28,057 nt of DNA from a virus (Duplodnaviria; Caudoviricetes), in IMG/VR virus record IMGVR_UViG_3300012667_000118, positions 1-28,057 of that record, one strand, 5' to 3'. A model generated the notes under the pieces. That model ran no database searches. It was given only the letters and a program-made list of their open reading frames with translations, and was not told where the DNA came from. A program made the translations under genes and the position numbers. Below, piece after piece: positions 1,001 to 16,219 of the stretch. Numbering within the stretch: position 1 is the stretch's first letter; every line of letters begins with the position of its first letter.

Positions 1001-2482
1001 TTAGTCCTCCTTATGTTGCCAGCCTTGTGCGGCTAAGTCTAAATGTTCTTGTTCGGTGCGTGCAATAAGTTCTTCGCCAGTATCTGGATTATACATAGTG
1101 TGTGCTTCAAACAATGGTGCTGCTGGTAGTGTGGCTGCTTCTGTTGCCACATATTCTGGCATAATGAGATCGGCATCTTCGCCCAACAGTTCAATGATCT
1201 CGTGATCAATAACTTGTAATACACGTGGATCAGTTGCCGCGGATTTAGCAGTGGCTAATTGTTGGAACTCACGTTGAACATCACGCACGTTGAATGAGCC
1301 TGGGTAATCAATCTCACCTTCCCACTCACGTCCTTGATACATACCGAATATCTTCCATAACTGTTCTTCAGCCAATTCCATATTGTCTGCTTTTGAAGCC
1401 AATCGTGCATTAAGCAAACTGAATTCAACTTCCATTGCTACGCCGGATAGAGTGCGTGTTTCGGTGCCACGCACTCCACCAGTGTTGCTTAAGCGATCAA
1501 TTGCTTCAACCAACTGTTGAATACTGGCGTGGATAGTGGCCACATTGCCCCCACCGTGTTCCAATACATATGGCTTTAGTCCTGGATCCATATTGTCCGG
1601 CATCATAATAACTGCACCGGCACCCGATCCATATTGTGTGTCCGGTGTGACTACTAAACTCGGATGTCCGTCTAAACGAATGCTCTGTTCAATTTCACTG
1701 TTATAGTTGTAGATAAGACGTTGGATATCAGCAATATCATTGATATCGCTAACGCCAATACCCTTTACAATGCTACGCTTGTTGTATGCGATAACAGCGG
1801 GTATCATACCGAGACCGTTTTGTTCGGTTAATATTAAATCCGCTTCTTTATTTTGATCATCCATAACCCAAGTATTGATCAACTCCTTAGTCCACTCACG
1901 AACTGTAGTCGACTTATCTACAACTTCTTCAATGTATTTGAAATAGGTTAGTTCGTAAGCACCATTTGGCATACGAGTCCATTTCCAATCCATTACTGCA
2001 AGTGGGGTTAGTAAGTTCATATATGGTCTTACACCCATTGCTTGTTCTTCACCCAATGTAGTCAATGCTAGATTAGGTTTGGTCATTAACATCCAGCAGT
2101 GTCCAAACACACTTGACCAAATGGATACATCTTTCATAAATGCATCTAATGAACGTCCATCGAAGTCACAATCCATTAGGAATGATTCCACATCCGGCTG
2201 TCCTTGCCACATACCGAACTCACGATCGGGTTCTTCACGGAATAGGTAACTGATATAAACTCCAATAACACTTTGGCAGTGATTATCTAATGGAGTTGTG
2301 CGAAGTCTTTGATAGTATTCGTTATCTGTTTCAAGTTGATAGCGAGTGAGATAACCTTCTTTGCGATAGTCTTCGCCACCCACATAACTGTCCAATAGGA
2401 ATGCCCAACGATCTCTATTGCGTTGATATTCTCTATTGGTTACTGCGATATATTTGTAGTCGTCCGTTAATGTTTGATTCAT
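1001..2482 (-). CDS. Portal protein (SPP1-like)
   Basis: 493 aa directly after terL; LGMIPAV..YN...G.SDI.DIADIQ and SGVA...F..LN motifs typical of SPP1-type portals. Confidence 0.88.
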   Translation of the reverse strand: MNQTLTDDYKYIAVTNREYQRNRDRWAFLLDSYVGGEDYRKEGYLTRYQLETDNEYYQRLRTTPLDNHCQSVIGVYISYLFREEPDREFGMWQGQPDVESFLMDCDFDGRSLDAFMKDVSIWSSVFGHCWMLMTKPNLALTTLGEEQAMGVRPYMNLLTPLAVMDWKWTRMPNGAYELTYFKYIEEVVDKSTTVREWTKELINTWVMDDQNKEADLILTEQNGLGMIPAVIAYNKRSIVKGIGVSDINDIADIQRLIYNYNSEIEQSIRLDGHPSLVVTPDTQYGSGAGAVIMMPDNMDPGLKPYVLEHGGGNVATIHASIQQLVEAIDRLSNTGGVRGTETRTLSGVAMEVEFSLLNARLASKADNMELAEEQLWKIFGMYQGREWEGEIDYPGSFNVRDVQREFQQLATAKSAATDPRVLQVIDHEIIELLGEDADLIMPEYVATEAATLPAAPLFEAHTMYNPDTGEELIARTEQEHLDLAAQGWQHKED

Positions 2483-2491
2483 AGTTTGTCC

Positions 2492-3727
2492 TTAAGTGGT
2501 AGCCAATTGATGGCCCCATCGTTGTGGTATATATGGTGCCGTTTCTTTACGCACCGGATATAGATAATCAACCATATAACGCAATGCATCGTTCATATGA
2601 TCAAATCCGCTTTCTTTGTCCGGGATGCTAGTCCCTTCTTTGTATGTTTGTTTCTCCAAACATTCTATTACATATTTACAGTTTGGTGCTATATGTAATG
2701 TGGTTATACCCGTAGAACTACGCAGTTTGGCATTGACAGCATTGATACCATCTCTAACTGCATTGTGTGCGTGGGGTGCTTTTACAGTAAATCCAGCGTT
2801 ACGGAGTATAGTGTGATCAGTTTTGCCCCCACTCTTACTGCTTCGTGCAGCACCTGCTGGATCGGGATAGACTACAATACGCTGAGTAGGATATCTTGCT
2901 TTGATCTCATCTACCATTTCATCAGTGTTGCTGCCGAAGATCTTTATCTCATCAATAAGGTGTAAGTGTTCGCCATTCTTTACTGCAACTACTGCTGACA
3001 TTGGGTTAATGTTAAAGTCCATTCCAATGTGTATTTCGTGCGGGACACCGAAGTCATACTGTTTAACATTATAGAAGCGTTCAAATGCGTAGAATATTCT
3101 GCCACTGAATGTTTCAAATGTAGCACGAAACTCTTGATTAAATGTGCGTTCATCCAATGATCTACGTGCTGCTTCGATTTCTTCTATGCTGACATTGCCA
3201 CCTTGCTCTGTAGTATATTGGAATGCTGCCCATTCTTCTGGGTATTCAGCAGCCATATCATATAGGTCTTTAGCCCAGTTCATACCCTTGGGTGTGCCAA
3301 TAAACAGTGCCTTGCCCATAGTATCAGCAAGTGTTGGACGCAGTGTTTCAAACCAGGCTTCTGGATCAATGTCCGCAAACTCATCCATTACTAGGAAGTC
3401 AAGTCCAACACCACGAAGACTGTCATAGTTATCAGCACCTTTGAGTGAGATTGTTGATCCGTTCTTTAGTTCAAATGATAGGCTTGTTTCGTTTATCTTT
3501 GACACCCAGCGTAATGATTGCAACTTCTTACGCAGTTTCTTAAACACAATCATCTTGGCTTGCTTATACGTGGGGGCCACATACCAAACTTCCTTTTCGG
3601 GTATGCTGGCTGCTTTACACAACTCCCTAACGGATAAGTGTGTTTTGCCAAAGCGACGCCCAGCAATAACTACACGGAATCGTTGCTGGGCTTGTGTTAT
3701 GGCTAACTGTGGGCTACTTAAAGGCAT
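2492..3727 (-). CDS. terL: Terminase large subunit
   Basis: Walker A AGRRFGKT, Walker B FLVMDE, GTPKG coupling motif, nuclease GMDFN and DHMNDALRY; likely start is ATG 3727 overlapping the upstream stop (TAATG). Confidence 0.95.
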   Translation of the reverse strand: MPLSSPQLAITQAQQRFRVVIAGRRFGKTHLSVRELCKAASIPEKEVWYVAPTYKQAKMIVFKKLRKKLQSLRWVSKINETSLSFELKNGSTISLKGADNYDSLRGVGLDFLVMDEFADIDPEAWFETLRPTLADTMGKALFIGTPKGMNWAKDLYDMAAEYPEEWAAFQYTTEQGGNVSIEEIEAARRSLDERTFNQEFRATFETFSGRIFYAFERFYNVKQYDFGVPHEIHIGMDFNINPMSAVVAVKNGEHLHLIDEIKIFGSNTDEMVDEIKARYPTQRIVVYPDPAGAARSSKSGGKTDHTILRNAGFTVKAPHAHNAVRDGINAVNAKLRSSTGITTLHIAPNCKYVIECLEKQTYKEGTSIPDKESGFDHMNDALRYMVDYLYPVRKETAPYIPQRWGHQLATT

Positions 3728-4554
3728 TAGATCCAAAGATTCCTATGTTGTTCTCTCAAAGTTTTAATATCACTTCCTAACTTTGATTTTATGTATTCCA
3801 TATTTTTTTTATATTTGTTATTTCTATCCAACTGTGCATTCCATTCTAATAGCCCATTAGGGTTAGCATTGGGTCCGGGGTTTTTATATTCTTTATGATG
3901 GGGATTAATTTCAAATATTGTGCTTTTGCTATGCACCATTTCTTTTAGACTTACTTGATCACATTGTGCAAACTTATACCCCTGCTGTATTAAACTACAA
4001 GCAAACTCTATATCTTCCAAAGCATCCATAGTTTCATCAAATCGCCATTCTCCAACTTGAAGAAACATCATTGTTCCTTTTTGTTCTAATTTAGGCCTAA
4101 ATGTCCAAGCGGGTTTAGTGTTCTTGGGATAGGGTGCCTGTTGAGCGTTAAATGGAATAAAAGACACAATACCCTGTTCTTGTGCTTGGCAGCATACTTG
4201 TTCTAATTCTACTACGAATCTCTGACTTTCTAGTTTGTCAAAATACAATGTAGCATCGTTATCCCAAATGCCAATCCATTCTTCTTTAGGATAAAAGTTT
4301 AATACTTGATTGCGGGCTTGTGCGGCATTGCTACGAGGGATTTTAACAACATCATCATATTCACTATAATCGTCAAATAACGAATTACGGTTATCGTGTT
4401 GAGTAAAGCAACGAAACTTATGACCTGCTTTTTTCCAATGATAAAAGTCTTCTTGTTGTCTAAGAAAATATTTGGTTCTATAATTGAATAGCGTATCTCC
4501 ACGACTATTAACCGTTGTATTATCACCGCGATAATCAATAATGTTAATCCACAT
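3727..4554 (-). CDS. Putative GT-A fold glycosyltransferase (GREB1/TAGT-like)
   Basis: ARNQVL..Y...WIGIWDND (DxD-like) and EDIEF motifs; visibly AT-richer than flanks. Confidence 0.55.
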   Translation of the reverse strand: MWINIIDYRGDNTTVNSRGDTLFNYRTKYFLRQQEDFYHWKKAGHKFRCFTQHDNRNSLFDDYSEYDDVVKIPRSNAAQARNQVLNFYPKEEWIGIWDNDATLYFDKLESQRFVVELEQVCCQAQEQGIVSFIPFNAQQAPYPKNTKPAWTFRPKLEQKGTMMFLQVGEWRFDETMDALEDIEFACSLIQQGYKFAQCDQVSLKEMVHSKSTIFEINPHHKEYKNPGPNANPNGLLEWNAQLDRNNKYKKNMEYIKSKLGSDIKTLREQHRNLWI

Positions 4555-5663
4555 TATTCAAACAATGTTTCAAATACTGTATTATCAACAGTGGGCTCAT
4601 CGATGACATCAACAGTTTCTTCAGTGTTCCACGCAATGATACGCTGCTCACTGATCTTGATATATTTGGCGTCTAAGTCGATACCAACATATTCGTGCCC
4701 TAATTTGGTTGCTGCCATACCGGTTGATCCACTACCGTTAAATGGGTCTAATACCTTACCATTAGGCGGGGTGATCAATGTAATCAAATACTTCATTAGT
4801 TCAACTGGTTTGACTGTGGGGTGATTGTTGCCAATAAGTTCTTTTTTATCGGTCTTAAACCCAACGTGTCTTTCTTTACGGCTGACTTTGGGGCAGTAGA
4901 AATACTTTTGATAGTCTGCGATTTCACCTAAGACATTGCTGGGATAACGGCCTGCTTCGTTTGGATTAAACTTTGTAGGTAAGTTCGACTGTTTATTGCC
5001 TTCACCAGCATTGCCAAAACTATAATTAGAATATTCAACTTGTGTGTCGGGATTAATATCACCGACTTCTAAAGGAATACGACTGGCATCAATGTTCAAT
5101 GCACCGGTACCCCACTGCTGCACATTCTTAACAATGCTGCCTTTAATTGGCTTGCGTGCTAATGCAATGGGTTCGTGTGCTGGCTTTAGGGCTGACTTCC
5201 AACCTTCCCATTGTTGTGCTAAGGGGTCGGTGACTATTACTTCTCTTGATTCACTGTCACTGCCAAACTCTCCATCGCCCCCAACACGAGGAACACCGAA
5301 CTTATATTTCTTACTTTCCTTAACACCTAACTGTTTTTGTATTTGTTTCCCAATATCTTGTGCCTTGGGGAATCCACTTGAATAGATCCACATTATCTGA
5401 TCACGGATTTCAAAGCCCGCCTTCTCAAGTGTAATAGCCAAGTGATGATATGTTCGTGCTGCTGAAAATGCAAGTATGTGACCACCTGGCTTTAATACTC
5501 TTAGACACTCTTGATAAGTCTCAAGTGCTCCAGTATTAGCATCCCAATCTTTACCTAAAAAGTCAATGCCATAAGGCGGGTCCGTGACTATACTGTCAAA
5601 GTGGTTATCGGGGTATGTTTTCAGCACATCTATATTGTTGCCGGTGTGTAATTGATATTTCAT
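4554..5663 (-). CDS. DNA methyltransferase, N4-C/N6-A beta class
   Basis: Catalytic DPPY near the N-terminus; HPTVKP and SAM-binding LDPFNGSGSTG near the C-terminus. Confidence 0.93.
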   Translation of the reverse strand: MKYQLHTGNNIDVLKTYPDNHFDSIVTDPPYGIDFLGKDWDANTGALETYQECLRVLKPGGHILAFSAARTYHHLAITLEKAGFEIRDQIMWIYSSGFPKAQDIGKQIQKQLGVKESKKYKFGVPRVGGDGEFGSDSESREVIVTDPLAQQWEGWKSALKPAHEPIALARKPIKGSIVKNVQQWGTGALNIDASRIPLEVGDINPDTQVEYSNYSFGNAGEGNKQSNLPTKFNPNEAGRYPSNVLGEIADYQKYFYCPKVSRKERHVGFKTDKKELIGNNHPTVKPVELMKYLITLITPPNGKVLDPFNGSGSTGMAATKLGHEYVGIDLDAKYIKISEQRIIAWNTEETVDVIDEPTVDNTVFETLFE

Positions 5664-5696
5664 TTTGTTTCCTTTGTAGCAAATATCTTTGGGAGT

Positions 5697-6095
5697 TTAT
5701 TCATCGTCACTCCACGGTAACGGTGTATTGGCTTCACTATCAGTCGGGTTGTCACTCATACCCAATATATTTTTGGCTAAAAATATCTGTATAGTAGCAT
5801 TGTTATTGTTAATGGCATTATGAATCATAGCACGCCTTAGGCTTTGCTTTAAGTTCATTTTGCCTTTTGTGAGTTCTTGCTTAAAGTTGTAACCTAAAGT
5901 AGAATCATCAATACCTAAATATTCGGATATTTCACTATTCTTAAAGCCCATTGAGGCTAACTTTTCAACTTCTTTTGGGTCAATAACTTTCTTATCACGA
6001 CCCACTTCTATGCCCTTGTAAACGGCTTCTACAAGTTGCTTAGGTTTATTGCCAGTCTTTTTTCGAGGCGTGGGATTATCGGTATGTTCTTCCAT
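5697..6095 (-). CDS. terS: Terminase small subunit (HTH), probably leaderless
   Basis: HTH VEKLASMGFKNSEISEYLGIDDSTL and IFLAKNILG motif; upstream of terL; likely start ATG 6095, 4 nt after TAAATA. Confidence 0.75.
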   Translation of the reverse strand: MEEHTDNPTPRKKTGNKPKQLVEAVYKGIEVGRDKKVIDPKEVEKLASMGFKNSEISEYLGIDDSTLGYNFKQELTKGKMNLKQSLRRAMIHNAINNNNATIQIFLAKNILGMSDNPTDSEANTPLPWSDDE

Positions 6096-6099
6096 ACCG

Positions 6100-6105
6100 T
6101 ATTTA
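6100..6105 (-). promoter_or_regulatory. TAAATA promoter core for the packaging operon
   Basis: GTTAAATACGGTATG, directly after tandem terminators. Confidence 0.72.
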
Positions 6106-6110
6106 ACGGC

Positions 6111-6140
6111 CAAAAGAAAAGCCCCGTATTAAAGAGGCTT
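6111..6140 (-). terminator. Intrinsic terminator
   Basis: AAGCCTC-TTTAATAC-GGGGCTT then TTCTTTTG. Confidence 0.75.
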
Positions 6141-6149
6141 ATTATGACT

Positions 6150-6188
6150 CAAAAGAAAAGCCCGACTGTGCAGAGTGTGGGCTTTTCT
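6150..6188 (-). terminator. Intrinsic terminator
   Basis: AGAAAAGCCC...GGGCTTTTCTTTTG. Confidence 0.75.
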
Positions 6189-6210
6189 AAACTCAGTGGG
6201 ACGTCCAAAT

Positions 6211-6348
6211 CTAACTGAGTTTTAACACTAAAAATGTGTATATGGGACTACCTTCACGAACGAACACTACATCAAAGTGTGCATCATAACTCCAATCACT
6301 TTCATTAAACTGATCTAACTTGATGTTATTATCAATCACTTCGCTCAT
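6211..6348 (-). CDS. Small hypothetical protein (45 aa)
   Basis: Hand-translated MSEVIDNNIKLDQFNESDWSYDAHFDVVFVREGSPIYTFLVLKLS; overlaps the upstream stop and ends before the terminators. Confidence 0.6.
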   Translation of the reverse strand: MSEVIDNNIKLDQFNESDWSYDAHFDVVFVREGSPIYTFLVLKLS

Positions 6349-6595
6349 TGAGTATCCGGTCATTTAATTGTTCCAATAATTGTTTTGCTGATTCAAGTTG
6401 TTCAATTGTTTGCAGTCTTTCTCGTTCTCTATCAATATCTTGTCTAATACGTGCAATTGCTGCTGTAATTTCTGCTCCATCATAGTTTGTATATACTTCG
6501 ATCATTGCTTGATACACTGCTTCAAGTCGAGCCCTTGAATGATCTTTAGTTAGAACGGGGCTTGCTGCAAGTTGTCGATCAAATAGTTTTTTCAT
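6332..6595 (-). CDS. Hypothetical coiled-coil protein (87 aa)
   Basis: ORF track; coupled to neighbours. Confidence 0.7.
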   Translation of the reverse strand: MKKLFDRQLAASPVLTKDHSRARLEAVYQAMIEVYTNYDGAEITAAIARIRQDIDRERERLQTIEQLESAKQLLEQLNDRILNERSD

Positions 6596-6743
6596 TAAAA
6601 ATTAAATTAGGATTAGTTTTGCGTCCAACTATTGCAAGTCTTTGTAAGCGTTCTGTGGCTGTGCTACCTTTCAGTATCCATTGCTTCAAAACAATCATAT
6701 CCTTTGTTTTTGGTAAGTCTGCTCGTAGTTGTTGTAATGTCAT
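6579..6743 (-). CDS. Small hypothetical protein (54 aa)
   Basis: Hand-translated MTLQQLRADLPKTKDMIVLKQWILKGSTATERLQRLAIVGRKTNPNLIFNEKTI; AGGAG RBS. Confidence 0.7.
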   Translation of the reverse strand: MTLQQLRADLPKTKDMIVLKQWILKGSTATERLQRLAIVGRKTNPNLIFNEKTI

Positions 6744-6788
6744 TAATATCTCCTAATATGTTAGTTTAACACGTTATGAGCGAATGCA

Positions 6789-6815
6789 CAAAAGAAAAGG
6801 GCGAATTAACACCCT
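6789..6815 (-). terminator. Intrinsic terminator
   Basis: AGGGTG-TTAATT-CGCCCT then TTTCTTTTG. Confidence 0.7.
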
Positions 6816-6830
6816 CGTCCCATCCCACGA

Positions 6831-7016
6831 TTATTCTAAAGTGATTTCTCTAATTGCAGTATTGCCAAACACGCCCAATGTGCGGAGTATATCGAACATT
6901 TGCTTAGCCTGATCTGGGTCACTGAATGTAATCTCTGCTGTCTTGCGACCCAGCATTAACATTTTAATAGTATTCTTTTCAGTTGAGGGTGTTGTTGTTT
7001 TTGTCGATGTTTTCAT
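6831..7016 (-). CDS. Hypothetical protein (61 aa)
   Basis: ORF track; GAGGT RBS upstream. Confidence 0.65.
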   Translation of the reverse strand: MKTSTKTTTPSTEKNTIKMLMLGRKTAEITFSDPDQAKQMFDILRTLGVFGNTAIREITLE

Positions 7017-7248
7017 ATTGTCTTGCTACCTCTAGTAATCTTAATCTGTCGTGTAATTGATTGATGACGGTTTCTTGTTTATTGACCATTTCAACCAATT
7101 GATTGAATTCAGTTGTTAATTGAACTATAAACTGTGTTCGCTTGTCCAAGTGTTCAGTTATTTGCAGTATATTGCGATGTGCTGACATTATCAGCGTTTC
7201 GTGTTGTTGTAATAGATCGTATGGATCGAATTCTTCTCCATCAAACAT
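6979..7248 (-). CDS. Hypothetical coiled-coil protein
   Basis: Heptad-rich; likely start ATG 7248 (MFDGEEFDPY) overlapping the upstream stop. Confidence 0.7.
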   Translation of the reverse strand: MFDGEEFDPYDLLQQHETLIMSAHRNILQITEHLDKRTQFIVQLTTEFNQLVEMVNKQETVINQLHDRLRLLEVARQYENIDKNNNTLN

Positions 7249-7633
7249 ATTCAAATCCGATCATAAACTTTAGAGTGTGACAGTCATCAAATACATTACC
7301 CAATATGTGTGAGATATTTTGCAATCCGTCCATTTGCTTGTCTGTGAGATCTCTTTGTTCCCCGAACATTGTATTGGCCAATACACCTGCTACAAATGAT
7401 GCCGGGGTGTTTTGTCCGCTGCGTCCTTTGGGTAGTGTTTCAGTGCGTTTGTTCCACCATTGATTGAATACCCATTTACTATCTGGATTACGGTCAATGG
7501 ATATCTCACCCATCTTCACTGTCCAACGCACTAACTCTGTTTGTAGGAATGTCATATCTTCTTCACTAATTGTTCTATAGTTAGTGTTGGCAGCAGTATG
7601 CTTGGGGATAAACTTAATTGTCTTGTTTGGCAT
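7241..7633 (-). CDS. Hypothetical protein (~130 aa)
   Basis: Likely start ATG 7633 (MPNKTIKF) with AAGGA RBS. Confidence 0.7.
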   Translation of the reverse strand: MPNKTIKFIPKHTAANTNYRTISEEDMTFLQTELVRWTVKMGEISIDRNPDSKWVFNQWWNKRTETLPKGRSGQNTPASFVAGVLANTMFGEQRDLTDKQMDGLQNISHILGNVFDDCHTLKFMIGFEYV

Positions 7634-8018
7634 TTTTAGGAGTTCCTTTACGATTTGGTTTATTATAGATTGCTCCTCTGCGAAGGAATCCACTTCTTTC
7701 TAATTGTTCACCACGGGTGATTATTTCTACATTGGTCATTGACCACGGACCTTTGATATCGATACGAGTTAATACTAAATCAGCACGATCACGGCCACGG
7801 CCCAACCACTTTTCTTCAGTGTCCCATAATGTGCAAAAGTCTTCAAATGTCAATTCAAATGCTTCGCCACGATACTTGCACTGTGCTTTTTGGCGTAAGT
7901 ATGGCACGTGACGAATGCGATCAAACATATCTTCATACTTCCACTGTGATGGGCGAGGTGCATTACGCCCTTGTCCCAATCCGTGCTTGCCTGCGTTGCG
8001 GGGTTTCATTTCGCTCAT
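7614..8018 (-). CDS. HNH/His-Me-finger endonuclease-like protein
   Basis: KAQCKYRG..FELTFEDF..LW and L.RID.KGPWS..NV.IIT pattern. Confidence 0.6.
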   Translation of the reverse strand: MSEMKPRNAGKHGLGQGRNAPRPSQWKYEDMFDRIRHVPYLRQKAQCKYRGEAFELTFEDFCTLWDTEEKWLGRGRDRADLVLTRIDIKGPWSMTNVEIITRGEQLERSGFLRRGAIYNKPNRKGTPKNAKQDN

Positions 8019-8443
8019 ATTTTAAATCCTAATGCTTGTTCTAATGGGTATCCTAAATCGTAAATGCGACTCCATATAGTGCGTGATTTGATACCTGTAA
8101 TGCGTGCCCATTGGGCTAATGTGTGTTGTTCGTCATTGAATACAATGATCAAGTTTGTCTGTCGATTGTTGTGATTTTCTTGCACAGTCGACCAACACAT
8201 ATTACCGGGCCAATAGCCACGGTCATTGTCAATGCGATCGAGATGTGCTTCAGGGAATGGAAGTGGTCCTATCTCTCGTTCTATTTCATCTGCAAATGTC
8301 CAAAAATCATTCCAACGAGGATCAATGTCTATTCCTCGTGCTCCATAATATTTGTATTGACGATTGTTTGGATTATAAATTTGATTTCTAAAACAAGTCC
8401 ATCTCTTCCATATTGGATGTGCTGTTGCTTTTCTTGCTGTCAT
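8015..8443 (-). CDS. HNH endonuclease-like protein with C-terminal HTH
   Basis: YGARGI, W..F..F, HLDRIDNDRGY.PGN.CW.T..EN.NN, then TLAQWARITGI..RTI..R; AGGAG RBS. Confidence 0.8.
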   Translation of the reverse strand: MTARKATAHPIWKRWTCFRNQIYNPNNRQYKYYGARGIDIDPRWNDFWTFADEIEREIGPLPFPEAHLDRIDNDRGYWPGNMCWSTVQENHNNRQTNLIIVFNDEQHTLAQWARITGIKSRTIWSRIYDLGYPLEQALGFKI

Positions 8444-8465
8444 CTAAGTTCTCCTTCTACAATAT

Positions 8466-8471
8466 TATTTA
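8466..8471 (-). promoter_or_regulatory. TAAATA promoter core for the HNH operon
   Basis: GCATAAATAATATTGTAGAAGGAGAACTTAGATG. Confidence 0.7.
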
Positions 8472-8502
8472 TGCAATGTAGTAAAGAAGTGCTGATAATA
8501 GG

Positions 8503-8664
8503 CTAATTTTGAATGGCTAATTGAAATAGATAACGAATGTTCCAAGCGTGTATCTGATCAATCCAATCAGGATGTTTAAGCAGCGTCAGTGTATCTTCGG
8601 GAGTAAGTGAGTTAGTTCTAGTTCGATAACATAACTCAACAAATAGATCATATTCGGGTATCAT
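8503..8664 (-). CDS. Small hypothetical protein (53 aa)
   Basis: Hand-translated MIPEYDLFVELCYRTRTNSLTPEDTLTLLKHPDWIDQIHAWNIRYLFQLAIQN; ATGA overlap with the upstream gene. Confidence 0.6.
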   Translation of the reverse strand: MIPEYDLFVELCYRTRTNSLTPEDTLTLLKHPDWIDQIHAWNIRYLFQLAIQN

Positions 8665-8849
8665 TTATATTTCCTTATAGGGACGTTGAGTTCATTAATG
8701 GCATAATAAGCATCTTTGGGTTTAAGCCATTTAATCCACTTATCGTGACAACTGCAAAACAATCCCGGAGTTGATGTTGTGCTTCCCGAAAATACTTTAA
8801 ATCTTACTTCAACGGGACAATCTTTGTGTCTTTCTTCATCTGGGCTCAT
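8661..8849 (-). CDS. Small putative Zn-binding protein (62 aa)
   Basis: HxxC...CxxH..WIKWL pattern; directly downstream of the polymerase gene. Confidence 0.65.
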   Translation of the reverse strand: MSPDEERHKDCPVEVRFKVFSGSTTSTPGLFCSCHDKWIKWLKPKDAYYAINELNVPIRKYK

Positions 8850-8867
8850 ATTATTATTTTTATTTTA

Positions 8868-8904
8868 GAGATCATATACAATAGGGTATATTAGTATATT
8901 GTTA
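8868..8904. repeat. 37-bp perfect direct repeat, downstream copy (begins with the polymerase stop codon)
   Basis: gagatcatatacaatagggtatattagtatattgtta, identical to 9634-9670. Confidence 0.97.
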
Positions 8905-9945
8905 TTTTTTTTCGTATTCAAATCTTACATCAAACTCTGTTTGATTTCTCACATAATCAATCAGTTGATCTTTATCTATCTCTCTGTCACACATCCATCC
9001 ATCGTGTATTAAAAAGTATTTTGATTCAATTTCATCTAGATAATTCCTAACTGAATTCAATACTTTTCTTTCAAGTTCAAAGTAGACGTGCCATCTTTGT
9101 TTACAAGTGATTGCAAGTAATCTCTCTTTGCCATTGGCTTGTGTTCGAGTTCTACGAGAGATAGTTGGAGAGATGTAATCCCAACAAGTTTTAATATCAC
9201 AACGAAGTTCAGCAATATATTGATCTTCTTTAAGTAAATCAATGCGGGCTCGATCTCCATTTAGAATATGATAGATATCTGAATCTTCGTGATTAGCAAT
9301 TCGTGCTCCCGCAAATAATGCATTGATGATTTCTTTGGCAGCAGCGGGTTCGAGTTCAAGTTTATTTGCAAGTTCATTGCGAACTTCAACTCTATTAGTG
9401 AGATATCTTCTTAGTGCAAATAGATATTCATCCATTCCTAAGTGCTGTGCATATTGATGTATTAATGTGGGTGCAGCACATTCAATATCATAATCGTGTA
9501 GATATCCCGAATCATTAAGAATTTGTGATCTGTATTCTTTGCGATATCGTTGTAATGGATGCCAAAGTCGATTGCTTTTGTCTTTGTATTGAAAGTCGCC
9601 ACTTGTCAATTCTTTAGAATGATCCTTTTGAGCGAGATCATATACAATAGGGTATATTAGTATATTGTTAATTTTCAATGCCTCTCTGAGATAATCTACA
9701 CCTCTTGCATTCAAAATATATTCTTTGCATTCCCCTGTATCTTTATTCCAATGACTATTAGTTTCGATTAATAAAATCTTTCGTAGATATTTAGAGATGT
9801 CAGTTGTTTGTTGTCCGAAGTATTTGTCTATATGTCTTGTAGACCACGGATGTGATTTAGTTTCGCTCATTACTCCACAAGCAAAGCCTAAGGCTGTTTT
9901 AATTCGTTTTGCAACACGAGGGTCGCTAAAATTTGGTGTATACAT
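8902..9945 (-). CDS. Stand-alone family-A-superfamily polymerase/primase (TV-Pol-like) with ~90-aa N-terminal domain
   Basis: RLWHPLQ pre-motif, motif A DYDIECAAP, motif B AKEIINALFAG, E.E..L helix, motif C LIHDGW; no exonuclease or helicase domain; AGGAG RBS. Confidence 0.7.
   Translation of the reverse strand: MYTPNFSDPRVAKRIKTALGFACGVMSETKSHPWSTRHIDKYFGQQTTDISKYLRKILLIETNSHWNKDTGECKEYILNARGVDYLREALKINNILIYPIVYDLAQKDHSKELTSGDFQYKDKSNRLWHPLQRYRKEYRSQILNDSGYLHDYDIECAAPTLIHQYAQHLGMDEYLFALRRYLTNRVEVRNELANKLELEPAAAKEIINALFAGARIANHEDSDIYHILNGDRARIDLLKEDQYIAELRCDIKTCWDYISPTISRRTRTQANGKERLLAITCKQRWHVYFELERKVLNSVRNYLDEIESKYFLIHDGWMCDREIDKDQLIDYVRNQTEFDVRFEYEKK
9634..9670. repeat. 37-bp perfect direct repeat, intragenic copy (codons 93-104, NNILIYPIVYDL)
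   Basis: Identical to 8868-8904. Confidence 0.97.
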
Positions 9946-10007
9946 ACACTCTCCTTGTTAATGAGACTTTTTATAGAAGTCACAAACTATTACTATGCTG
10001 TCAAGTA

Positions 10008-10015
10008 TATTTATA
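10008..10015 (-). promoter_or_regulatory. Perfect T4 late promoter consensus TATAAATA upstream of the polymerase gene
   Basis: TATTATATAAATATAC on minus strand; leader hairpin GACTT...AAGTC at 9965-9981. Confidence 0.72.
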
Positions 10016-10055
10016 TAATAACACAAAGAGAGTAAAATAAATGGGGATTTTTAGT

Positions 10056-10091
10056 CAAAAGAAAGCCCGGATGTCTAACTTTCCGGGCTTT
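10056..10091 (-). terminator. Intrinsic terminator closing the candidate ncRNA
   Basis: AAAGCCCGGA-AAGTTAGACA-TCCGGGCTTT then CTTTTG. Confidence 0.8.
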
Positions 10092-10248
10092 AAAGAACTC
10101 ATTGCAAGTTCGATTGACTCATTTTAGTTTTGTTATAATATAGTGACAGCCATAGCAACAGTTTTAAAGGAGCGAGTCAATATAACAGCAACAAACGGCG
10201 AAATCTCAGTAGTAAGTAATCCATTGAGGAGTGTTTGTTGCTATTACT
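10056..10248 (-). ncRNA. Candidate structured non-coding RNA (~190 nt)
   Basis: TAAATA at 10253-10258, four consecutive hairpins with the last a terminator; no RBS-led ORF on this strand. Confidence 0.55.
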
Positions 10249-10252
10249 ATTA

Positions 10253-10258
10253 TATTTA
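10253..10258 (-). promoter_or_regulatory. TAAATA promoter core for the candidate ncRNA
   Basis: ACTAAATATAATAG immediately after the stop of ORF 10261-10587. Confidence 0.65.
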
Positions 10259-10260
10259 GT

Positions 10261-10587
10261 TCAGTCTTCTTTTGCAACTGTAAAACGACCAAAATCGATC
10301 ATTTCTTTCGTTGTGAATCTTTCACTTTTGCCACAGTCTCCGCATTTGCCCCGCCATTGTCCGGCAGCAGCAGCCTTGATATAGATTTTTTCTTTGACAC
10401 AGATGGCTTGGCACCACTCGCAAGTTGATGCTGTGGGATTAAAAGACGTGACGACTGGGTAGGGATTTTCCGGCGCTGCATCTGGATCCTTTGCGGGACG
10501 ACCAGTTGCACCAGCGGAACCTGGGAATGTAGCCAATCGCCATTTGGTCAACTGATCTAATATTTGGTAAAATTGTTCTGCAAGCAT
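10261..10587 (-). CDS. Zn-finger protein (CxxC...CxxC), probably leaderless
   Basis: CEWC and CGDC pairs; TAATTA variant 5 nt before ATG; no RBS. Confidence 0.7.
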   Translation of the reverse strand: MLAEQFYQILDQLTKWRLATFPGSAGATGRPAKDPDAAPENPYPVVTSFNPTASTCEWCQAICVKEKIYIKAAAAGQWRGKCGDCGKSERFTTKEMIDFGRFTVAKED

Positions 10588-10616
10588 ACGTTTAATTAGT
10601 ATGCTTACAAAGGTTG

Positions 10617-10859
10617 TTAACCCAATTTGACTATTATTGTTCCAATTAAGCCAATAATGCTAACAACTATTGTTCCCAATACTGGCATAAGTGCTTTGAC
10701 TAAGTCGCCTTTAAGTCCATCGACTTTTGCAGCCAATACATCAAGTTTTGTTTCAACTTTGTTTAGTCGTTGATCTAACTCTTGATATCGTTTAGCACAA
10801 AGATCAACGTGTAGATCTAAGTTAGTTCGTTCTTGTTCCATTGTATCTATTGTGCTCAT
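10617..10859 (-). CDS. Coiled-coil plus C-terminal TM protein (XhlA-like/holin-like)
   Basis: HVDLCAKRYQEL..RL..VE coiled-coil then hydrophobic LMPVLGTIVVSIIGLIGTIIV; follows the tail genes. Confidence 0.6.
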   Translation of the reverse strand: MSTIDTMEQERTNLDLHVDLCAKRYQELDQRLNKVETKLDVLAAKVDGLKGDLVKALMPVLGTIVVSIIGLIGTIIVKLG

Positions 10860-10901
10860 AATTTTATTCTTGTTAGTTAAACCGTTAGCGGCTTTGAATA
10901 A

Positions 10902-10907
10902 TATTTA
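10902..10907 (-). promoter_or_regulatory. TAAATA promoter core for the holin-like gene
   Basis: ATTAAATATTATTC followed by hairpin AAGCCG-CTAA-CGGTTT (10879-10894). Confidence 0.65.
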
Positions 10908-10948
10908 ATTCAATTGACTATTTTTAACGGTTTAACCAATACTTTAGT

Positions 10949-13549: not shown

Positions 13550-16219
13550 TTAGACTGGTATTGTAACTGAGTTACTATTGGCCACATATAGCCATTCACT
13601 TGCATCGTTATCCCAATAGGCCAATGCATAGTTGCCTGCTGGGCTGTTTTCATCTGCACCACTGTCGCTAATGGTAATGGTCAATCCAATTGCTCCTGTT
13701 GGCAGTGTGCTTCTTGTATAGACAGCAGTTTGTCCCGGAACGGCAGCAGTTGTTTGAACTGTTGTATCTGGGAATGTTATACCAGTGCTGCTGAATTGAT
13801 AAGCAGTTGCTGTGCTGGCATCATAACTGTTGATAGTGATAGTTCCATCAGCAGCCAATTTAACATATTGTTCATCATTACCTAACATCAAGTCAGCATA
13901 AGGATTAGCACCCTTTTCAATGTGGATGTGACTACCATCAAATGCTGCTGTTGGGCGAATAACGATGTATTGTCCGTTACCAACTAAACTGCTGTTAGGA
14001 ACAAGTTCAATCGAGCCTGCTACGCTGTATGTGCCAGTGCCAACAATTTGAATATTGTTAAAAGTAATATCACCGGTTGAACCAGCGGAGCCTGTATAAC
14101 CAATATCTCCTTGAATGCCTTTTGCAGCAATATTAGTCCAGAATGTTCCTTCACTAGGAGTATCTCCTACATTTCCGCCATTGCTATTAATTCTATACCA
14201 AGTGCTTCCGTCATAGGTTGCTAAATCACCTACAGCGTAAGAGGCTCCGGCATTATATGCAGCGGTAAAGTTCCATAGGGCATCGGCACCAGTTGAACCA
14301 GTATATCCAATATCGCCCTGTGCTCCTGTGCTACCAGTATATCCAATATCGCCCTGTGCTCCAGTTGATCCAGTATAACCGATGTCACCCTGAATGCCTT
14401 GAGATCCAGTATAACCGATATCGCCCTGAATGCCTTGACTACCAGTGTATCCGATAAAGCCTTGTTCGCCCTGTGCTCCTGTGCTACCAGTATAACCAAT
14501 GATACCTTGTTCGCCCTGTGCTCCAGTTGATCCAGTATAACCGATGTCACCCTGAATGCCTTGACTTCCGGTATAACCGATATCGCCCTGAATGCCTTGA
14601 CTACCAGTATAACCAATGTCACCTTGAATACCCTGACTTCCAGTATAACCCTGTGCACCAATGGATCCAGTGTAACCTAAATTGCCCTGTATGCCTTGGC
14701 TACCGGTATATCCAATATCTCCTTTAGCACCTGTGTTACCAGGATCACCTTGTGGTCCAGTAATACCCTGTGCACCACTTAGATCACTGACATAGGAATA
14801 AGAAACACCGCTCCAAAGGTATAAGCGACTGTTTTCTGCATTTTCAACGCTAGCAGTTTCGATCAATGCAAATTGTCCAGCCACAATACCTGTTGGAGCA
14901 GTATCGGCTTCTAATGCAGCAACACTTGAATATGTCTTTGCAATAGTAAATCCCATTCCGGTATCGCCTTTGCTACCAGTATAACCAATATCTCCCTTAG
15001 CACCTGTATTACCTTGCGATCCTGTATAACCAATATCGCCCTTACTACCAGTGTAGCCGATATCACCTTGAATGCCTTGTGAGCCGGTGTATCCGATAAC
15101 TCCTTGGTCGCCTTGAATGCCTTGGCTACCTGTGTATCCAATTACACCCTGAATGCCTTGACTACCAGTAAATCCAATGCTACCTGTAAATCCAGTGCTA
15201 CCTGTAAATCCAGTAGATCCGACTGCACCAATATCTCCCATAACGGAAAGTGATGCATTAGTAATACCACCATTAAGTTCATTTATTCTAACGGCAAAAT
15301 ATAATGCAGCACCTTCTGCTCTAGCAGTAGTTCTTACCAATGTGCCATTTTTATAATATCTAACATTTACGCCATCGTAAGTGATAGAAAATAAGTCAGT
15401 TGCCGCATAAGTTCCTAAATTAACTTGGGTAGAATTTTCTTGAATATACAATGCATTATTCACTGCCCAAAATGCATAGTTAAGACTTGAAGTAAGAGAT
15501 GTTGTGCTATGTAATCCTACCACAGTGATAGTATAGATACTGATAGCAGTAAAATTAAAAGATAAACTTATATTTTTAACATAGGATTCATTCGAACGGA
15601 ATCTAGCATCAGTTTGACTTAAATTACTTGCAGCACCCGAAGTTTTTAAGAATGTTCCATTTGCTGATTGAGTAACGTGCTGAATAATAACTGGTGTCCA
15701 AACATTTAATCCATCAGTTCCTCTACTACCAGTAAAACCAGTGCTACCAGTAAATCCAATAGATCCAGTGTAGCCTAACGAGCCTGTATAACCAGTGTCG
15801 CCCTTGCTACCAGTGTAGCCAATAACACCTTGAATACCTTGAATTCCTTGAGATCCAGTATAACCAATATCGCCTTGTGCACCAGTTGAACCAGTATAAC
15901 CTAAATCACCAGGTGGTCCCTCTTCTGCTTCCATATATAGGAACCAGTTGGCAGTGTCTTGATCTGGAGGCGTAGTGCTGGTTACTGTGTGACGTGCAAC
16001 ATAGATATCGTTATTGTGTCGAACATTGTTGCCCAATCTGTATTCTACACCACTTGTCCAAATGCCTGCAAATACATCCGCTGTATTTGGCATTTGAAAG
16101 ATAGTTGCGTTGCTGTTGATAACAATAGGAGTTTCAACAGTTGCTACGGTAACTGTAGTCAATGCATCACTGACTACAACTTCCGAAATATAGTTTGTTA
16201 CGGTAAATGATACAGACAT
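13550..16219 (-). CDS. Collagen-like tail fibre with interleaved carbohydrate-binding-like domains
   Basis: Gly-X-Y tracts (GYTGSQGIQGDI); two CBM5/12-like modules (W.SG.EY..G..V; YNAGASYAVGD..TYDGSTW); lectin-like insert FSITYDGVNVRYYKNG. Confidence 0.8.
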   Translation of the reverse strand: MSVSFTVTNYISEVVVSDALTTVTVATVETPIVINSNATIFQMPNTADVFAGIWTSGVEYRLGNNVRHNNDIYVARHTVTSTTPPDQDTANWFLYMEAEEGPPGDLGYTGSTGAQGDIGYTGSQGIQGIQGVIGYTGSKGDTGYTGSLGYTGSIGFTGSTGFTGSRGTDGLNVWTPVIIQHVTQSANGTFLKTSGAASNLSQTDARFRSNESYVKNISLSFNFTAISIYTITVVGLHSTTSLTSSLNYAFWAVNNALYIQENSTQVNLGTYAATDLFSITYDGVNVRYYKNGTLVRTTARAEGAALYFAVRINELNGGITNASLSVMGDIGAVGSTGFTGSTGFTGSIGFTGSQGIQGVIGYTGSQGIQGDQGVIGYTGSQGIQGDIGYTGSKGDIGYTGSQGNTGAKGDIGYTGSKGDTGMGFTIAKTYSSVAALEADTAPTGIVAGQFALIETASVENAENSRLYLWSGVSYSYVSDLSGAQGITGPQGDPGNTGAKGDIGYTGSQGIQGNLGYTGSIGAQGYTGSQGIQGDIGYTGSQGIQGDIGYTGSQGIQGDIGYTGSTGAQGEQGIIGYTGSTGAQGEQGFIGYTGSQGIQGDIGYTGSQGIQGDIGYTGSTGAQGDIGYTGSTGAQGDIGYTGSTGADALWNFTAAYNAGASYAVGDLATYDGSTWYRINSNGGNVGDTPSEGTFWTNIAAKGIQGDIGYTGSAGSTGDITFNNIQIVGTGTYSVAGSIELVPNSSLVGNGQYIVIRPTAAFDGSHIHIEKGANPYADLMLGNDEQYVKLAADGTITINSYDASTATAYQFSSTGITFPDTTVQTTAAVPGQTAVYTRSTLPTGAIGLTITISDSGADENSPAGNYALAYWDNDASEWLYVANSNSVTIPV
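14280..14790. repeat. Degenerate 36-bp tandem repeats encoding collagen-like GYTGS(Q/T)G(I/A)QGDI
   Basis: Recurrent ccagtataaccgat.tc.ccctgaatgccttga; further tracts at about 14960-15235 and 15720-15920. Confidence 0.9.

Follow-up and report, generated by a model that had tools for sequence, protein, structure and literature searches.

The window, that is, the whole stretch of 28,057 nt analysed here, raised the question of how a small tailed phage with no recognisable replication apparatus starts to copy its DNA. The original prediction had answered with a minimal stand-alone PolA-superfamily enzyme of the TV-Pol type, acting as an origin-specific initiator-primase or, alternatively, as a tiny RNA polymerase. 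We analysed the gene of this protein, P0001 (8902..9945, minus strand; 347 aa), by AlphaFold modelling, structure searches, and comparison of homologues, together with a repeated DNA element at the gene. Together, gene and element likely constitute a previously undescribed system in which the copying of phage DNA is started by one protein at its own origin.

Genome setting of the P0001 gene

The window represented a complete circular tailed-phage genome of approximately 28.0 kb with a 55-nt terminal overlap, and the minus strand held all of its main genes. It encoded portal, terminase, capsid, tape-measure, and tail-fibre genes, and additionally a DNA methylase and HNH-like genes, one clear and one weak. 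Because the phage has its own virion genes, packaging does not depend on a helper phage. The best public match for the region was a freshwater metagenome (share 0.42). The tail fibre (13550–16219, minus strand) was collagen-like, consisting of G-Y-T-G-S repeats with a CBM5/12-like module. The GC skew of the window had no usable switch.

Searches of the 36 window ORFs against Pfam and PHROGs gave no match to helicase, primase, SSB, or polymerase families, in agreement with the earlier statement that no other replication gene was recognisable. Ten further genomes bearing the gene were 30–40 kb in length, nine of them at least 93% complete, and of siphovirus and podovirus types; the gene was single-copy in all ten. 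No replication family was matched by 240 representative ORFs (85–900 aa) and 14 longer ORFs of these genomes, a scan that covered ORFs of at least 85 aa falling outside the clusters of the window ORFs. DSL-LC06 (OR003941, L166), a similar 30-kb siphovirus, had neither the gene nor the element nor any annotated replication gene. The existence of such a phage weakens the argument from absence, and being the only recognisable replication gene is no proof of essentiality.

Predicted fold and relatives of P0001

A phmmer search found 429 relatives of P0001, and a profile search found 1,266 representatives of 50%-identity clusters at E ≤ 0.001, the best 150 of which were mostly 330–450 aa in length. 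No protein family for P0001 was found in Pfam, PHROGs, NCBIfam, or PDB sequence searches, and tblastn against annotated phages (50,697 records) and plasmids gave no matches. Fused forms of 726–2070 aa were also searched for and none was found, which counts as weak evidence. Among the homologues, P0163 (539 aa) had two hairpin-like motifs, and that of L144 consisted of two ORFs, the break lying near profile position 200; both element copies there were intact.

The AlphaFold model of P0001 (pLDDT 93) contained a right-hand palm predicted with high confidence and had no exonuclease or nuclease domain, as had been proposed. When residues 97–347 (8905..9657, minus strand) were compared with PolA-superfamily structures by VIA, the Z scores were 12.0 with pol nu, 11.8 with the Klenow fragment, 10.3 with T7 DNA polymerase, and 10.1 with T7 RNA polymerase, with an rmsd of approximately 4 Å over 222–232 residues. 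The fold scores thus favoured DNA polymerases slightly over T7 RNA polymerase. These scores, the conservation pattern, and the positions of the T7 motifs identified the region as a minimal PolA-superfamily catalytic domain, as originally predicted. The best viral models were uncharacterised phage proteins, followed by the helicase/primase proteins of Qinghai Lake virophage (E = 3e-7) and Zamilon (1e-6); matches in an Atlas structure search included D5-fused Preplasmiviricota clusters with TM scores of 0.54–0.59.

Residues 1–92 (9670..9945, minus strand), modelled alone with a pLDDT of 96, had the topology helix-strand-helix-helix-hairpin-helix. The best matches were mostly winged-helix proteins of PadR/MarR-like type, at weak scores (Z ≤ 4.8; Foldseek E ≥ 0.07). 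The N-terminal domain is therefore predicted to be a winged helix, an assignment that is weak by score: the topology suspected at the outset fitted, and the structural matches remained weak.

Active site

Conservation was assessed in 133 of the best 150 listed cluster representatives, of 320–480 aa and including P0001. Eight residues were invariant in 133/133 sequences: R126, D153, R189, K204, W255, E292, H314, and D315. The three motifs named in the original prediction were present, as DYDIECAAP (151–159), AKEIINALFAG (203–213), and HDG (314–316), and the catalytic aspartates of motifs A and C (D153 and D315) were invariant; the first Asp of DYD, D151, was not conserved among the 133 relatives, and motif B did not have the Arg of RxxxK, position 200 varying among E, V, P, and I. 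A palm/fingers fold and the Asp residues of motifs A and C, both belonging to the PolA superfamily, were thus found in P0001, and the enzyme, as modelled, looks active. There was no conserved fingers Asp at 186–188, and the invariant R189 sat one helix earlier; R189 on this preceding helix may substitute for the missing Arg of RxxxK. R126 was located on the β-hairpin E121–128, which was preceded by a single helix (94–115) in the AlphaFold model.

At position D+5 of motif A, P0001 had Ala158, and Ala occupied this position in 93% of the 133 relatives; the T7 record gives Gly542 for the RNA polymerase and Glu480 for the DNA polymerase. Position 208 was N or T, and position 212 was C, A, N, or S where the T7 enzymes have Tyr (Tyr639 in T7 RNA polymerase). 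Judging from these residues, ribonucleotides are probably tolerated. A primer made by the enzyme would likely be RNA or mixed, because Ala replaces the ribose-excluding Glu, and RNA rather than DNA priming is plausible.

A repeated DNA element at the P0001 gene

An exact repeat of 37 nt, absent from the original prediction, connected 9634–9670, in the inter-domain linker, with 8868–8904, which spans the stop codon; in 300 codon-shuffled regions, the longest repeat arising by chance was 16 nt. The in-gene copy (9634..9675, codons ~91–104) consisted of a box (9634–9649), GGG on the plus strand (9650–9652), and an AT-rich tract (9653–9675), and the stop-codon copy (8868..8909) repeated this layout with a box at 8868–8883, GGG at 8884–8886, and an AT-rich tract at 8887–8909. 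A matrix built from 105 homologous loci and the window (81 distinct) gave the consensus of a G-poor, A/C-rich tract of approximately 20 nt, ACCC, and the box TA(G/T)TGT-N3-(AC/GG)A(AG/TC)T(C/T). The G content of the tract was 0.04–0.06 against 0.23–0.24.

In 64 full-length loci with enough flank, a few of them near-duplicates, the box was present in 51; it was found in the linker and at the end of the gene in 35, at the end without a linker copy in 14, and otherwise placed in 2. Of the 13 loci in which the standard box was absent, most had variants, and three (L024, L077, and L091) had none. The matrix gave 124 matches in 279 k positions near the gene vs 5 in 949 k positions far away, having been trained on the very loci that it scored. 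As an independent test, IMG/VR was scanned with two DNA patterns that used no information on the gene, which yielded 36 loci, distributed over 24 contigs, with 12 of them new. The gene lay within 2 kb on 22/24 of these contigs, and the remaining two contigs ended at the match. The element was found in 8/10 whole genomes, with strong matches at this gene only, and was carried by the held-out genome-collection loci L162 and L163, which were outside the training set. Such a dedicated cis element, restricted to this gene across the family, supported the original guess of an origin-specific initiator. The L162 homologue, 65% identical and with a box identical to that of the window, came from a MAG carrying the label uncultured Legionella; its 5.8-kb contig is probably a mis-binned phage piece.

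In L163 (37% protein identity), the element was non-coding, inverted, and 370 nt upstream of the gene. Because of this non-coding position, we regard the element as a DNA signal rather than a consequence of the codons for YP(I/S)V; YP(I/S)V was itself not conserved in distant proteins. The orientation relative to the gene varied (L023, L081, L094, L156/L158, and L163), and in the window the element pointed against every gene. CCC/GGG was replaced by CATA in L021/L059/L078/L083 and by CTCT in L096. Box-only copies also existed, those in L037, L092, and L099/L100 being inverted and located 35–60 nt before the start codon, which suggests that the box is separable as a candidate binding site. Box variants accompanied changes in helix 2 of the N-terminal domain in three lineages (L018/L079/L085, L036, and L096); this covariation appears anecdotal at the sequence level, since other helix variants keep the usual box. 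It is likely that the N-terminal domain reads the cis element. A hairpin promoter similar to that of N4 was considered and rejected, as the window copy folded weakly and 101 elements had a median z of −0.09. A scan for sigma-70 promoters and terminators was at chance level.

Homogenisation, duplication, and mobility of the element

Copies within a genome were compared in 32 non-redundant genomes holding both. At three free positions, copies from one genome agreed at 0.91, as compared with 0.48 for copies from different genomes and 0.50 when the nearest relative was used; when 20 variable columns were scored, the identity was 0.77 within a genome vs 0.45 (0/5000 permutations). Rare variants occurred in both copies in L004, L036, L065, and L096. 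The genome's own downstream copy was better than the best foreign copy in only 19/32 loci (2 ties), which indicates that sharing between phages is also common. In the near-identical phages L001 and L027, an AGC/AGT variant was found shuffled over three copies of the element, which suggests that conversion is fast. Similar behaviour is described for duplicated mitochondrial control regions (PMC4523187). A lopsided identity profile was considered as a sign of directional copying and set aside, as the duplications extended on both sides and coding constraints can explain the profile.

Extra tandem copies of the element were found in 8 loci, 57–116 nt apart. L066 (1–972) carried a diverged second 3′ end of the Pol domain, joined in frame at the element; the amplification may be genuine or the contig chimeric. 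On a fast tree of 67 proteins, with labels assigned partly by eye, no fewer than 10 changes were required to account for the in-gene copy. An independently mobile Pol cassette was rejected, as there was no excess incongruence between the domains: the Spearman correlation of N-terminal and Pol-domain distances was 0.63, that of the two Pol halves 0.67, and the nearest-neighbour values were 0.44 vs 0.41. If the 766 nt separating the repeats were lost, a 104-aa ORF with the DNA-binding domain only would remain, ending there because a stop follows the downstream copy in the frame of the in-gene copy. The joint of such a deletion was not seen in the contigs of four sequencing runs, which proves nothing. 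L163 was an integrase-flanked chromosomal island in a Duganella MAG; its 1943–10919 stretch included a tyrosine integrase, a second integrase-like ORF, and an AAA-ATPase-like ORF, with no virion genes in the stretch listed.

Comparison with known systems

TV-Pols are minimal PolA proteins predicted to be primase-polymerases (Iyer, Abhiman and Aravind 2008, PMC2579912). As far as they are described there, P0001 shares with them a minimal PolA core, an invariant hairpin Arg (R126), two Asp residues, and the lack of a nuclease domain, and some TV-Pol members have an N-terminal domain and adjoin integrases, as in L163. The P0001 family differs in having neither RxxxK nor a conserved fingers Asp, in having no D5 helicase fused or nearby (11 genomes), and in being the one gene for replication that can be recognised in these tailed phages. 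According to the same description, TV-Pol has a two-helix thumb coiled coil, where the P0001 model has one helix before the hairpin, and the parts of PMC2579912 used here describe no cognate cis element. Searches for matches to a TV-Pol model gave none in Pfam (P0001 only), NCBIfam, or PHROGs (107 members). The resemblance to TV-Pol claimed originally thus stood at the level of predicted structure and not in RxxxK and the fingers Asp; on the model, P0001 is TV-Pol-like and should not be filed as a TV-Pol.

The divPolA2 proteins, as described by Yutin et al. (2024, PMC11348598), similarly combine a phage PolA fold with an unrelated N-terminal domain and no exonuclease, and their function is left open there between DNA and RNA synthesis. 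They are reported beside a regular polymerase in barbaviruses of 80–85 kb, whereas no other polymerase was found in the 11 genomes examined here, and the AUR84708 group keeps both the Glu at D+5 and RxxxK. An hhalign comparison with the AUR84708 group gave a weak match (probability 36%) over 60 columns, covering the hairpin and motif A only.

CCPol-MP is reported to start primers de novo, with G as the most frequent first nucleotide (Bebel et al. 2020, PMC7581432). In the account given there, the CCPol-MP-Cch2 system of SCCmec resembles the present one in using a PolA-type primase whose favoured start site falls at an origin next to the operon. However, CCPol is described as keeping the equivalents of E710 and F762 and using dNTPs, whereas P0001 relatives have Ala at 158 in 93% and N or T at 208; it needs a separate MP subunit; primases of this kind have an OB-fold SSB partner and a helicase in the operon, whereas no SSB or helicase was matched here; and its origin is bound by the helicase Cch2, which the P0001 family does not have. 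ColE2 Rep is described as a single origin-specific primase that requires host Pol I (PMC4538821). One protein that binds the origin and primes for host Pol I is also our working model, but Rep, on that description, has an AEP fold and is plasmid-borne, and P0001 has a PolA fold.

The T7 gene 1/phi1.1A/B region primes replication as the primary origin. With this origin, the P0001 system shares a PolA-superfamily enzyme, twin sites adjoining the enzyme's own gene, and a purine-run start; in T7, however, the RNA polymerase additionally serves many promoters to transcribe the genome, and the phage owns a replisome. The small D+5 residue is shared with T7 RNA polymerase, but Tyr639 of motif B and promoters before operons are not. 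Lambda O-type initiators have their binding sites within their own gene, past the part that encodes the N-terminal DNA-binding domain, a layout shared with P0001; the C-terminal domain of O, in contrast, recruits a helicase loader and contains no polymerase. Neither the P0001 family nor the element was described in the literature searched, and the supplements of PMC2579912 and PMC11348598 could list members.

Proposed role and alternative explanations

We consider it fairly probable that the gene and the element together constitute a replication start, P0001 being a one-protein origin-specific initiator-primase and the element its candidate origin. The winged helix would bind the 16-bp box, the AT-rich tract would open, and the catalytic domain would begin a primer de novo beside the box. 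The start would probably be GGG, on the strand opposite to the gene, because the bound protein should sit behind the start; the start site and direction are the weakest step of the mechanism, because CCC is replaced in some clades and the orientation varies. The primer, likely RNA or mixed, would be extended by host Pol I, and by analogy with ColE2 the host helicase and Pol III would then take over. The copies within a genome are kept alike, possibly through frequent recombination at an active origin, and the Zn-ribbon protein encoded next to P0001 may act as an optional helper. A more ambitious formulation is offered tentatively, as a possibility that we stop short of calling probable: a single winged-helix/PolA protein of 350 aa would recognise a 40-bp double-stranded origin, open it without a helicase, synthesise an RNA primer in the manner of a T7 RNA polymerase reduced in size, and hand over to the host replisome. 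It would represent a new minimal-replicon class: hundreds of small tailed phages unrelated to one another, as well as some integrative elements, would have no replication gene besides this one, and the origin would have been copied repeatedly into the linker of the gene itself.

Several observations could instead point to a selfish or hitch-hiking module, in which enzyme and element copy themselves between phages and integrative elements while the phage replicates otherwise. The same gene was found in sipho- and podo-type genomes that are unrelated, as well as in an integrase-flanked chromosomal island, the repeats flanked the catalytic cassette or the whole gene (L017), the cassette was tandemly duplicated in L066, HNH-type genes often adjoined, and DSL-LC06 lived without the gene. 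We nevertheless consider this explanation unlikely, as each of ten genomes out of ten had one copy and no other replication family was found, the agreement of the domain distances (0.63 vs 0.67) argues that the cassette does not travel alone, and phages swap replication modules anyway. A tiny T7-like RNA polymerase, for which the element would be a promoter and the product a regulatory or antisense RNA rather than an extended primer, would account for the small steric-gate residue, as in T7 RNA polymerase, and for a 16-bp box directly before GGG, which resembles the T7 promoter layout; in T7, phi1.1A/B sit 26 and 101 nt past the gene 1 stop. An RNA polymerase was also among the options raised for divPolA2 in the account of Yutin et al. 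(2024, PMC11348598). But the element occurred at this gene only, never before operons, and in the window it opposed every gene, and P0001 had no equivalent of Tyr639, a length of 347 aa against approximately 880, and scores slightly favouring DNA polymerases; we rate this explanation as rather unlikely. For the same reason of placement, the tiny RNA polymerase offered originally is unlikely as a maker of messengers.

That P0001 is a self-sufficient, primer-independent replicase, priming and copying the genome by strand displacement, is in our judgement quite improbable. It is the sole polymerase-fold protein in these genomes, TV-Pols are predicted primase-polymerases (as described in PMC2579912), and CCPol is reported to do both (PMC7581432), but P0001 has no proofreading domain and only a short helical region before the palm, and the lack of a helicase, SSB, or Glu gate is a poor fit for 28–40 kb. 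Least probable, and very unlikely in our view, is an accessory or repair polymerase whose box is an autoregulatory operator only; the inverted box-only copies before the start codon would suit an operator, but most copies were mid-gene or at the 3′ end and had the conserved CCC and G-poor tract, which an operator does not need.

The enzyme is real, widespread, and uncharacterised, and its candidate origin is defined to the base. The priming prediction of Iyer et al. (2008) for minimal PolA proteins is directly testable with one protein and a 40-bp duplex. The sole tested case that we found in the literature is CCPol, described as needing a partner subunit and sitting with a helicase; the P0001 family offers a compact single-chain enzyme and an exact candidate DNA site. 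If true, the proposed role would explain how DNA copying starts in many small freshwater phages for which no replication genes are annotated. Origin-specific priming on duplex DNA would then gain a PolA-fold route, an enzyme possibly intermediate between Pol I and T7 RNA polymerase would be at hand, and a very small orthogonal replicon would be on offer.

Genes neighbouring P0001

A predicted Zn-ribbon ORF of 62 aa (8661..8849, minus strand), with H8, C11, C32, H35, and W41, adjoined the P0001 gene and is a candidate accessory subunit, not an obligatory one. ORFs of this type (50–90 aa, H-x2-(C/H)...C-x2-(C/H) with a Trp) were the commonest recurrent neighbour, in 23/48 loci, and the Zn type adjoined the gene, downstream or upstream, in 30/64 loci. 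A small domain of the PF12843 type replaced it in 5 loci, and it was missing from 5/11 whole genomes. The Zn-ribbon ORF matched no library family, and its likeness to a primase zinc ribbon was judged by eye only. In DSL-LC06, 600–1330 contained an unannotated homologue of the Zn-ribbon ORF interrupted by stops, followed by approximately 500 nt without an annotated gene.

An integrase was present in G007 and L163. Upstream of the P0001 gene, a 108-aa ORF with two CxxC pairs (10261–10587, minus strand) matched no family, and its relatives sat upstream in some homologous loci. A 150-aa ORF at 7241–7693 (minus strand), likewise without a family, was found near the gene in 9/48 loci. Two adjacent endonuclease-like ORFs, one a clear HNH and one weak, were located at 7614–8443 (minus strand), and relatives of these were found near the gene in 9 and 13 of the 48 loci.
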